DNA from: Gammaproteobacteria bacterium
GTDB taxonomy: Bacteria; Pseudomonadota; Gammaproteobacteria; UBA4575
DNA: 64,000 nt
Direction: 5' to 3'
Assembly (NCBI GenBank): GCA_965222615.1
Contig: CBDCUI010000008.1
Coordinates: forward strand, 992,001-1,056,000
Position numbers and translations under genes: made by a program. The number at the start of each line of letters is the position of its first letter. Position 1 is the first letter of the stretch. The notes below the pieces were generated by a model. The model worked only from the letters and a program-made list of their open reading frames with translations. It was not told the DNA's origin and made no database searches. This document shows, piece after piece, positions 5,499 to 13,073 of the stretch.

Positions 5499-5690
5499 AT
5501 GCTGATTTTGACTCGGAGAGTCGGCGAAACGCTGATGATAGGAGATGATGTCACTGTCACTGTGTTAGGAGTGAAGGGTAACCAAGTACGTATTGGTGTC
5601 AATGCGCCGAGAGATGTTGCTGTGCATCGTGAAGAAATTTATGAACGCATTAAGCGTGAAAAGTCGCAAGCATCAGAATCTGCTGGTTGA
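5499..5690 (+). CDS. csrA: Carbon storage regulator CsrA/RsmA
   Basis: [44 protein letters not shown]. Confidence 0.99.
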
Positions 5691-5991: not shown

Positions 5992-6024
5992 ATTGATTTA
6001 ATTGCAAATAGAATGGTATCTAAC

Positions 6025-6404
6025 TGGCGGAGAGGGACACTTGCGAGCGGGTATTGCTCGCAAATTGATGCTCGCGTAGCGATTCCATTATACATATTTT
6101 TTCAATAGCATTATGGCACGCACCTTCCATGATGCGGGCTCTCACTCACGTGTCCCTACGCTCGCGCCTGAAGGATTACAAAATACCTTCATAGGAGATT
6201 ATCTAAAAGTTGCTCGCATCCTCCCTGATGCGAACTCTCTCTCGTACTTCCATGTACTCCACCATAAAGGCCGTTGTGGCAAAGCCACAACGTTCAAAAT
6301 TGTTCCAGACAATTTTGTCGAACTCCATTGTTAATATGTCGGGAGTTCGAGACTTACCAACTGCATAAATATTAAAAAAGCCCTTTAAAGGTCTTTTTTA
6401 ATAT
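6025..6404 (-). repeat. tRNA-linked structured trailer, copy A (after tRNA-Arg ACG)
   Basis: Homologous to 6659-6901 and 12584-12935; hairpin, anti-T-arm, GGA hairpins; ends in CCCTCTCCGCCA. Confidence 0.85.
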
Positions 6405-6481
6405 TGGCGCGCCCGGAGAGATTCGAACTCCCGACCCCCTGGTTCGTAGCCAGGTACTCTATCCAACTGAGCTACGGGCGC
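6405..6481 (-). tRNA. tRNA-Arg(ACG)
   Basis: GCGCCCG acceptor, CCTGG-CTACGAA-CCAGG anticodon arm, TTCGAAT T-loop, CCA; 77 nt. Confidence 0.98.
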
Positions 6482-6491
6482 TGATATGAAA

Positions 6492-6504
6492 GCCGGCGAT
6501 TATA
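6492..6504 (-). promoter_or_regulatory. -10 box and GC-rich discriminator of tRNA-Arg promoter
   Basis: Minus strand TATAAT-CGCCGGC just upstream of the tRNA. Confidence 0.6.
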
Positions 6505-6565
6505 ACGAATTAGGCGATTAGAATTACATATATTATTAGGTATCCGATATACTCTTCCATCAATC

Positions 6566-6901
<336 letters not shown>

Positions 6902-7025
6902 ATATTTTACAACTTGTTACGAACGCAAACTCAATACATGCACGTAATTTTTGTAATTTAAGCCTAGTTCTGTAGGTCTCTATAAACGGATTATTTCCAA
7001 TTTAATTAACTATCAAGGAATTGAA

Positions 7026-12506: not shown

Positions 12507-12583
12507 GCGCCTGTAGCTCAGCTGGATAGAGTACCTGGCTTCGAACCAGGTGGTCGGGGGTTCGAATCCCTCCAGGCGCGCCA
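12507..12583 (+). tRNA. tRNA-Arg(TCG)
   Basis: GCGCCTG/CAGGCGC acceptor, CCTGG-CTTCGAA-CCAGG, GGGGGTTCGAATCCCTC, CCA; TATACT at 12493-12498. Confidence 0.95.
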
Positions 12584-12935
12584 ACATCCAAATGGGTCAA
12601 TAATGGCCCATTTGGATGTTGATGCAATTGGTTAGTTTCGAACCCCCGACATAGATAATGGAGTTCGACAAATTCGTCTGGCGAGTACATGGATGTACGA
12701 GAGAGAGAACGTATCATGGAAGATGCGTACCGCTGTATAAAAACAGCAGTTTATTTTTGAATATGTGGCTAAGTCAAAATAGTCGAAAAGGGCGAGTATA
12801 GAGATATGGGAGAGAGAGTTCGCATCAGGGAGGATGCGAGCAACTTTTAGACAATCTCCCATGAAGGTATTTTGTAATCCTCCGGATATGAGCGTAGGAA
12901 CACACGAAAGAGTCTGCATCATGGAAAGTGCGCTC
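12584..12935 (+). repeat. tRNA-linked structured trailer, copy C (after tRNA-Arg TCG)
   Basis: Homologous to copy A; hairpin 12583-12620, anti-T-arm 12637-12650, four clear GGA hairpins. Confidence 0.85.
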
Positions 12936-13073
12936 AACAATTACCTTCAAAGCACCTGACTTTCAATGATCAATTGCCATAAATTTCACTAGTCTTCGCT
13001 GCTTATTTAACAAGTAGCATCTTCAAGTGACTCTAAGTATTTGAAAGAAGGTGAACTTAATAGAAAGTTTTTG

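Follow-up and report, generated by a model that had tools for sequence, protein, structure and literature searches.

The csrA region and its three tRNA trailers

The window, by which we mean the whole stretch of 64,000 nucleotides (nt) that was analysed (Gammaproteobacteria bacterium, assembly GCA_965222615.1, contig CBDCUI010000008.1, positions 992,001 to 1,056,000), contains the gene csrA and three tRNA genes, each followed on its own strand by a trailer, termed copy A, B or C, with hairpins that present a GGA motif in the loop. By sequence and predicted fold the assignment of these trailers to the tRNA-linked repeat (TLR) family is well supported, and a 55-nt twin-GGA module, consisting of the last TLR hairpin (H4) and a second GGA hairpin, is present in about 54 copies at 37 loci of this genome (contig C6 excluded). 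An earlier first-pass annotation had read the trailers as a possible tRNA-derived sponge for CsrA. In the features of the region given below, R1 and R2 are covariance models of the module and of the TLR unit with its hairpins H1 to H4, respectively.

5499-5690, plus strand: csrA, 63 amino acids (NCBIfam CsrA equivalog, 119.6 bits)
6405-6481, minus strand: tRNA-Arg(acg), upstream stable RNA of copy A (ARAGORN; Rfam tRNA, 65.6 bits)
6362-6404, minus strand: copy A, terminator hairpin in the first-terminator place of the dual-terminator layout (RNAfold -11.6 kcal/mol, 16-bp stem and U run, z -2.97)
6338-6350, minus strand: copy A, inverted 13-nt copy of the tRNA-Arg(acg) T-arm, 5' arm of a hairpin (longest-match scan, offset +55)
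6234-6338, minus strand: copy A, full TLR core, H1-H4, with GGA in the H1 and H4 loops (R2, 93.3 bits)
6208-6268, minus strand: copy A, twin-GGA module 1, hairpins 6244-6257 and 6215-6232, the first being H4 (R1, 66.5 bits; RNAfold)
6112-6172, minus strand: copy A, twin-GGA module 2, second hairpin 6119-6136 (R1, 56.0 bits)
6025-6036, minus strand: copy A, far end, 12 nt of the tRNA-Ser(gct) 3' terminus in inverted form (pattern search)
6566-6658, plus strand: tRNA-Ser(gct), upstream stable RNA of copy B (ARAGORN and Rfam tRNA)
6714-6728, plus strand: copy B, inverted T-arm of tRNA-Ser(gct), matching exactly over 10 nt and over 15 nt at one mismatch
6754-6814, plus strand: copy B, twin-GGA module joined to a truncated repeat, with hairpins at 6765-6778 and 6791-6806 (R1, 55.4 bits; RNAfold; alignment)
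6890-6901, plus strand: copy B, closing direct repeat, 12 nt from the 3' end of tRNA-Ser(gct) (pattern search)
12507-12583, plus strand: tRNA-Arg(tcg), upstream stable RNA of copy C (ARAGORN and Rfam tRNA)
12584-12621, plus strand: copy C, 16-bp hairpin directly 3' of the tRNA, in the first-terminator position, without a U run (RNAfold -25.2 kcal/mol, z -6.22)
12637-12650, plus strand: copy C, inverted 14-nt copy of the tRNA-Arg(tcg) T-arm (longest-match scan, offset +54)
12674-12734, plus strand: copy C, twin-GGA module 1, hairpins 12685-12698 and 12710-12727 (R1, 66.1 bits; RNAfold)
12732-12757, plus strand: copy C, terminator-like hairpin and T run after module 1, in the second-terminator position (terminator scan; -6.6 kcal/mol)
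12785-12845, plus strand: copy C, twin-GGA module 2, first hairpin decayed, second 12821-12838 (R1, 62.0 bits)
12881-12939, plus strand: copy C, weak third module, hairpin 12916-12931 (R1, 26.2 bits, E 1.2e-4)

The CsrA protein of this genome and E. coli CsrA (1Y00) are near-identical, with few substitutions in the alignment of residues 1-59. Copies A, B and C begin at the first base 3' of their tRNA on the same strand and are mutually alignable; in the alignment copy A is a full unit, and copies B and C are units cut within the H1 loop and then joined to a module. An inverted copy of the T-arm was found at +51 to +56 behind six tRNAs in a longest-match scan. Note that copy A closes with the 12-mer from the end of tRNA-Ser(gct) and not with the end of its own tRNA-Arg; this 12-mer has three exact matches in the window versus 0.07 expected.

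Every hairpin listed in the first-pass annotation lies where it had been placed and reads GGA on the tRNA-sense strand, and a decayed hairpin of copy C that had been overlooked, in which GGA has become AGA, is found at 12795-12808. In all three modules that were folded with RNAfold the GGA is located inside the loop (z -3.96, -2.86 and -6.15). As evidenced by a count of GGA-loop hairpins with 5-bp stems in 1000 dinucleotide shuffles, their number clearly exceeds that in shuffled sequence: copy A has three versus a shuffle mean of 0.26 (equalled in 0 of 1000), copy B two versus 0.17 (7 of 1000) and copy C three versus 0.31 (2 of 1000).

A 96-nt 'tRNA-Trp' called by ARAGORN at 6270-6365 on the plus strand was rejected as a likely false positive; it has no Rfam tRNA match and is the antisense of copy A with its T-arm pieces. 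The genome searched, of 3.10 Mb, is coded G000 in the following, its relatives G001 and so on, and two genera g3 and g7. The divergent pair of tRNA-Arg(acg) and tRNA-Ser(gct) is inverted in its orientation to csrA when compared with G001, G002, G007 and G014. At 6020-6905 of the window, inverted copies of about 110 nt of the distal trailer bracket this pair, each ending in the tRNA-Ser 3' 12-mer, and the flipped arrangement fits an inversion between the trailer repeats.

The tRNA-linked repeat

In G001, the one other sampled species of the same genus, tRNA-Arg(tcg) is followed by a unit of about 170 nt that ends in a 19-nt copy of the 3' end of that tRNA. A scan of 64 tRNAs of the present genome found this geometry behind the Thr, Lys, Ser-tga and Ser-gga tRNAs, with an inverted T-arm copy at +51 to +64 that measures 13-14 nt for Thr, Ser-tga and Ser-gga and 9 nt for Lys, and with the tRNA end repeated over 19 nt at +157 to +170. 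The layout of the unit is, in order, the stable-RNA gene, a palindromic terminator hairpin, a hairpin of inverted and direct T-arm copies, H1 to H4 and a repeat of the stable-RNA end, and across units this terminal direct repeat equals the last 12-21 nt of the stable RNA. Model R2 was built from alignment A6, which holds 10 trailer units of this lineage; pairing in its helices stands at 93.5%, and both partners change in 14 of 20 pairs, a result that none of 500 shuffles matched. E-values of the covariance models are rough throughout. As a side observation, the start of the TLR is an inverted T-arm copy of its own tRNA (behind the tRNAs at C8:691517, C8:818045, C9:50921 and C9:663929 of G000, and in the window copies), its body resembles the last ~30 nt of the tRNA, split ~19 nt from the end by the H1-H4 cassette, and the T-loop variant is copied as well, TTCAA for Thr and Pro and TTCGA for the others.

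When applied to one E. coli chromosome, R2 yielded nine matches at E<=0.01. Three of these score 61-62 bits, and the two that were examined both lie right after the 5S rRNA at the ends of rrn operons; four more, at 30.7-34.3 bits, are the annotated RtT small RNAs (sRNAs) 'processed from tyrT transcript'. The E. coli family was described by Stenum et al. (2021; PMC8144298), and what we state of it here and below draws on that paper. TLRs were first described in 1978, and in 2021, 43 years on, their function was still called unknown. They comprise RtT behind tyrT and RrA, RrB and RrF behind the 5S rRNA at the ends of rrnA, rrnB and rrnD, with 22 copies in E. coli K-12 that are spread over ten loci, each closing with 18-19 bp of the upstream tRNA or rRNA, a terminal repeat proposed to serve RNase E processing. 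RrA, RrB and RrF are located between dual terminators, are made as transcription runs past the first terminator of the rRNA operon, are short-lived and contain five GGA motifs, two of them in loops. RrB binds CsrA in vitro at about 100 nM, and this binding is lost on mutation of three GGA motifs. The three rrn-linked copies, for which in-vitro binding of both CsrA and Hfq is given, were reported in Enterobacterales only, and the homologues reported came from 31 species in 12 genera, all within Enterobacteriales; a growth-rate link for stable-RNA-coupled CsrA binding was already suggested there. From the R2 alignment, H1 and H4 would be the two loop GGA motifs of that study. Since a first-terminator hairpin belongs to the TLR layout, the hairpin right after the tRNA is no argument against expression of the trailers.

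The Rfam model of RtT, RF00391, scored 37, 28.6 and 17.9 bits on the Lys, Ser-gga and Thr units of this genome, reached its gathering score of 45 nowhere in the genome and had no window match at E<=10. It also misses the E. coli rrn TLRs at E<=0.01 and is therefore a narrow model. Rfam scans of the window and of 8 kb returned tRNAs and chance-level matches only. RF02902 (AaHKsRNA22, Aggregatibacter sRNA 22) gave sub-threshold matches to TLR cores, at 23.7-26.2 bits versus 39.8 (window 6227-6328, minus strand; L182:371-474, L183:179-274 and L184:369-463), and this sRNA may be a TLR relative.

R2 matched 28 of 61 relatives. In a class sample of one genome per family the matches numbered 63 of 151 gammaproteobacterial genomes, including the present one and the unpublished G079, or 62 of 150 other families, and GGA is kept in both loops (H1 and H4) across these families. 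Among the 23 best loci in relatives, 18 adjoin a tRNA on the same strand, 16 downstream and 2 upstream of it, and 10 of the 16 downstream units end in at least 12 nt of the tRNA 3' end. In G054 and G028 units are located within tRNA operons, between tRNA-Arg and tRNA-His; blastn of the G054 unit against plasmids and phages gave no match. This comparison supports the GGA loops as the selected feature of TLRs. A literature search of partial coverage found no report on TLRs outside Enterobacterales or on TLR-derived modules in 3' untranslated regions (3' UTRs), and the homologue list in the supplements of PMC8144298 may bear on this point.

The twin-GGA module in this genome and its relatives

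A module profile made from 15 copies located 47 places at E<0.01 in the 3.10-Mb genome. Forty of them were used for R1, leaving out one exact duplicate and six low-scoring divergent copies, and R1 in turn gave 56 matches at E<=0.01. Over the 40 copies its stems are 89% paired, with both partners changed in 8 of 11 pairs and a score that none of 500 shuffles matched. The first hairpin of the module is H4 of the TLR unit. Both loops read A-N-GGA-N, with GGA conserved at 95-100% and the N positions at 38-47%; conservation of the loop GGA beyond the window, on which the first-pass annotation had staked its proposal, is also seen in relatives, at 98-100% in 61 module copies from 11 genomes. G-U pairs outnumber A-C mismatches by 24 to 4 in the R1 stems, an excess which argues that the GGA-sense strand folds as a single strand.

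Seven of the 37 loci lie within 300 nt of a tRNA versus 3.9% expected (p 5e-4), all on the strand of that tRNA, four as trailers and three as leaders, and the other 30 are not near a tRNA. The modules are mostly found just downstream of genes in sense orientation: by crude gene calls (longest non-overlapping open reading frames of at least 100 amino acids), 27 of 37 loci share the orientation of the 5'-flanking gene (p 0.008), and there is no bias towards the gene on the 3' side (18 of 37). No promoter-like site was found ahead of the modules on their strand, and an Rfam scan of five other module loci returned nothing relevant. The end of contig C6, 13043-13469, is a near-copy of the tRNA-Ser(tga) trailer region at C9:50900-51400 (87-97% identity) and may be an unresolved assembly repeat.

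R1 matched 14 of 61 genomes, the present one included, and these relatives are not independent of one another. All eight sampled genomes of g7 carry modules, in 12-68 copies, with 44 in G011; R1 matched none of nine sampled g3 genomes and none of 24 other families sampled. A strict pattern scan of 185,579 species genomes retrieved only five records, all metagenome-assembled genomes, labelled Gammaproteobacteria or Thiotrichales. In G014, where 20 regions out of 60 matches were picked by top score and arrays, 28 of 35 loci are on the strand of the 5'-flanking gene (p 5e-4), most of them 0-140 nt past the stop codon. Sequence, fold, covariation, family membership, distribution and orientation of the modules are established by observation. 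Two other causes of the pattern in G014 were rejected. Where adjacent modules lie on opposite strands, each has the orientation of its own gene, which speaks against a replication-strand bias, and an integron attC-like reading of the arrays of genes and modules was dropped, as the modules are found on both strands, follow local genes and have no attC-type core sites to be seen in their flanks. At G014:C1:1359860-1360094 (L093:1361-1595), three tandem twin modules with six GGA hairpins and a period of ~87 nt run antisense to both neighbours and are a possible free-standing multi-GGA RNA gene.

Copies A and B do lie within about 1.2 kb of csrA (5499-5690), as the first-pass annotation had pointed out. 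The same tRNA-Ser/tRNA-Arg pair stands after csrA in G001, G002, G007 and G014, with the modules missing at these loci in all four relatives, and in E. coli the order is already alaS-csrA-tRNA-Ser-tRNA-Arg, so that the closeness of csrA and trailers is inherited synteny. In the leader of tRNA-Ser(tga), two modules are found between a conserved upstream block and the tRNA in this genome and in G014, and G001, G006, G007 and G028 have an empty site. Taken together, the absences and the filled and empty sites argue that the modules are insertions that come and go. A side observation on csrA itself is that G012, of genus g3, has five CsrA-family matches and nearly all other family members have one.

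A scan for ANGGA density placed the modules below 6 per 200 nt and pointed instead to a region upstream of glyQ, outside the window (G000:C7:569850-570050; L034 ~1040-1240). It holds a candidate Csr/Rsm-type sRNA with ~8-10 GGA motifs, several of them in conserved hairpin loops, and a terminator at its end, in DNA that is conserved in five genera, and this RNA may already be the main CsrA antagonist. As to the canonical Rsm sRNAs, a point raised in the first-pass annotation, Rfam detects neither RsmY nor RsmZ genome-wide, the best RsmY match (28.6 bits versus 57) being a gene end with its terminator.

Two more repeats of this genome carry GGA loops. Family 2, a highly uniform repeat of 135 nt at 19 loci (e.g. 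C9:562037-562171 and C8:469544-469678) that resembles a miniature inverted-repeat transposable element, has two GGA-loop hairpins and weak R2 matches on nine copies (27-35 bits), and appears to be a further TLR derivative; its orientation is unbiased (10 of 19). Family 3, a repeat of 122 nt at 15 loci in G000 (e.g. C7:465279-465399, C8:797844-797964 and C8:412613-412734; L182-L184), forms a long hairpin when folded, in which two internal loops are of the AYGGAY type, and its TwoAYGGAY matches are sub-threshold (34.2 and 29.4 bits versus 43). Three copies have a full TLR on their own strand ~60 nt downstream, as though the repeat itself were a stable RNA.

Interpretation and comparison with known systems

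With a probability of roughly 0.55, we favor the reading that the trailers are TLRs, that a twin module derived from H4 has spread from them to ~37 loci, and that the resulting RNAs act as a diffuse, transcription-coupled sink for CsrA or as local handles. The units would be transcribed by read-through from the tRNA or the upstream gene, as has been published for E. coli. H4 and a second GGA hairpin would have given rise to the 55-nt module, which was presumably multiplied in tandem in the trailers and spread behind genes. Its two A-N-GGA-N loops, ~27 nt apart, could be bridged by one CsrA dimer, as this spacing is within the range that a single dimer can span. By analogy with the GGA-dependent binding of E. 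coli RrB (PMC8144298), module and TLR RNAs may bind CsrA, and the outcome would be a diffuse load coupled to transcription, or local control, and not a dedicated tRNA-trailer sponge. Expression, CsrA binding and any effect in this organism would follow from the same analogy.

A bolder form of this reading is doubtful in our estimate. Here the twin module would be a TLR-derived movable cassette that recruits CsrA and wires ~37 transcription units into the Csr network, and TLRs would be an ancient CsrA input coupled to stable RNA. Such a cassette would insert in the sense direction after stop codons and within the leaders and trailers of tRNAs, building a distributed, transcription-coupled CsrA sink, and the occurrence of the two-loop GGA in ~40% of the sampled gammaproteobacterial families would make the TLRs an ancient input.

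Several observations weigh against our preferred reading. The repeats in copies B and C are truncated; B alone retains a repeat of its own tRNA 3' end, of 12 nt, and a search for such a terminal repeat in copy C found none. Neither a TLR nor a Csr/Rsm family is detected by Rfam in the window, even at E<=10. The asymmetry of G-U over A-C is weak for R2 (5:3 and 11:8) and is 25:14 for R1 in relatives. The orientation counts suffer from the crude gene calls and, for G014, from the selective choice of regions. A copy number of 54 versus 3 in G001 of the same genus, as well as filled and empty sites among close relatives, fit a spreading repeat as well as a regulator. The gene csrA is present in 39 of 41 family genomes, with or without modules. 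In E. coli, deletion and overexpression of the homologues gave modest, partly paradoxical phenotypes (PMC8144298).

The strongest alternative, to which we give about one chance in four, is a selfish or neutral repeat, in which hairpins and GGA loops are kept for the repeat's own copying or for the processing of stable-RNA precursors by RNases, and the likeness to CsrA sites is incidental. The patchy bursts by lineage (12-68 copies in 8 of 8 g7 genomes, 44 in G011, none in nine of g3), the filled and empty orthologous sites at the tRNA-Ser(tga) leader, the tandem arrays and the related 135-nt family 2 with its lack of orientation bias all suit it, and so does the RNase E processing proposed for the terminal repeat (PMC8144298). 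The part that is invariant, however, is GGA with free neighbours, in two different loops and across 60-odd families, an E. coli member binds CsrA via its GGA motifs (PMC8144298), and the sense-orientation bias is found in two genera. The copy number also does not follow the presence of a Y1 transposase of the RAYT type (repetitive extragenic palindrome (REP)-associated tyrosine transposase). A REP/RAYT system was accordingly rejected: Y1_Tnp was found in 1 of 10 sampled g7 genomes, yet 8 of 8 g7 genomes sampled with R1 carry modules, and G001 combines three Y1 matches with three modules.

The proposal of the first-pass annotation, that excised tRNA 3' trailers form a dedicated CsrA sponge which tracks stable-RNA transcription and so reports growth rate, with the closeness to csrA as a meaningful feature, appears improbable in this strict form. 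It draws on the layout of copy C, in which tRNA, first hairpin, GGA modules and second terminator follow one another as in the dual-terminator arrangement of RrA, RrB and RrF (PMC8144298), on the up to six hairpins of copy C and on the excess of loci close to tRNAs, 7 of 37 and all on the tRNA strand. Set against this, R1 finds no module in G001, G002, G007, G014 or G006, be it at the tRNAs linked to csrA or at tRNA-Arg(tcg), with 12.9 bits as the best score; the order of csrA and tRNAs is ancient, 30 of 37 loci are elsewhere in the genome, and three of the tRNA-linked loci are leaders and not trailers. The conserved candidate sRNA upstream of glyQ may be the main antagonist, and in E. coli CsrB beats RrB ten-fold and phenotypes are modest (PMC8144298). 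What stands of the proposal is its core, in that the trailers are homologues of E. coli TLRs and CsrA binding of RrB is published; it is partly supported and reasonable, but the sponge and growth-rate idea is not new and has largely been published for the E. coli homologues, with modest effects in vivo (PMC8144298).

That the units are scars or miniature forms of tRNA-targeting integrative elements, with attL/attR repeats around a remnant attP, moved by tyrosine integrases, and hairpins as recombination signals, is very improbable. In its favor, the units are flanked by repeats, in direct orientation, of the tRNA 3' end as far as CCA, each tandem unit is closed by the repeat, and units are present or absent among relatives. 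Against it, the E. coli members lie behind 5S rRNA with the 5S 3' end as terminal repeat (PMC8144298), none of six Phage_integrase (PF00589) matches in the genome adjoins a unit-bearing tRNA, eight different tRNAs would each require their own specificity, units are found within tRNA operons, and R1 shows the asymmetry of G-U over A-C.

New in this analysis is the apparent occurrence of the TLR fold in 62 of 150 other sampled families, usually behind tRNAs and with GGA in two loops on covarying stems, as well as a lineage in which one TLR hairpin has become a high-copy 3'-UTR element. The covariance models R1 and R2 find relatives that the Rfam model of RtT misses. Should CsrA bind the module, a regulon would here have been enlarged through the spread of an RNA cassette, and should TLRs be an ancient CsrA input, a function would be at hand for a family for which none was known in 2021 (PMC8144298).

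Among known systems, CsrB, CsrC, RsmY and RsmZ share with the modules several A-N-GGA-N hairpin loops per RNA and CsrA as the expected ligand. They differ in that the module sites are embedded in other transcripts at dozens of loci, with no promoter or GacA-type box of their own found. The Rfam models of CsrB, CsrC, RsmY, RsmZ and rsmX found none in the window and that of RsmZ none genome-wide; in a weak test, a LetA-type box had two exact matches, both inside genes elsewhere, and a strict GacA-type box had none. TwoAYGGAY (RF01731) likewise has two hairpins with AYGGAY-type loops, but the twin module has another linker and context and no RF01731 match. BOX and REP elements are modular intergenic repeats that are short, structured, multi-copy and mosaic, as are the twin modules; the latter stand apart through a strong sense bias, invariant loops that resemble protein sites, an origin in a stable-RNA repeat and the lack of a tie to a Y1 transposase. 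E. coli 3'ETS-leuZ (Lalaouna et al. 2015, cited in PMC8144298) is also a regulator-titrating RNA cut from the trailer of a tRNA precursor, but it base-pairs with the sRNAs RyhB and RybB, and the elements described here would titrate a protein via loop motifs.

The closest relatives are the E. coli TLRs themselves. RtT (RF00391, from the tyrT-tyrV transcript) is linked to tRNAs, arranged in tandem and composed of units closed by the tRNA 3' end; R2 matches all four annotated copies, and RF00391 in turn matches the Lys and Ser units of this genome, though below its gathering score and not in the window. One RtT copy aligned by R2 has a compressed H1 region and no GGA in the H4 loop. With RrA, RrB and RrF the likeness extends to the fold (R2, 61-62 bits), to GGA in loops that align with H1 and H4, to the position of the unit, which follows a stable-RNA gene and is flanked by a first hairpin and a second terminator, to the terminal repeat that copies the 3' end of this gene, and to the proposed role, CsrA binding tied to stable-RNA transcription (PMC8144298). 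The units described here are found in a distant family and behind tRNAs (Arg, Ser, Thr, Lys and Pro) instead of 5S rRNA, and in this lineage the last hairpin has grown into twin modules, which have increased in number and moved out to the 3' regions of mRNAs.

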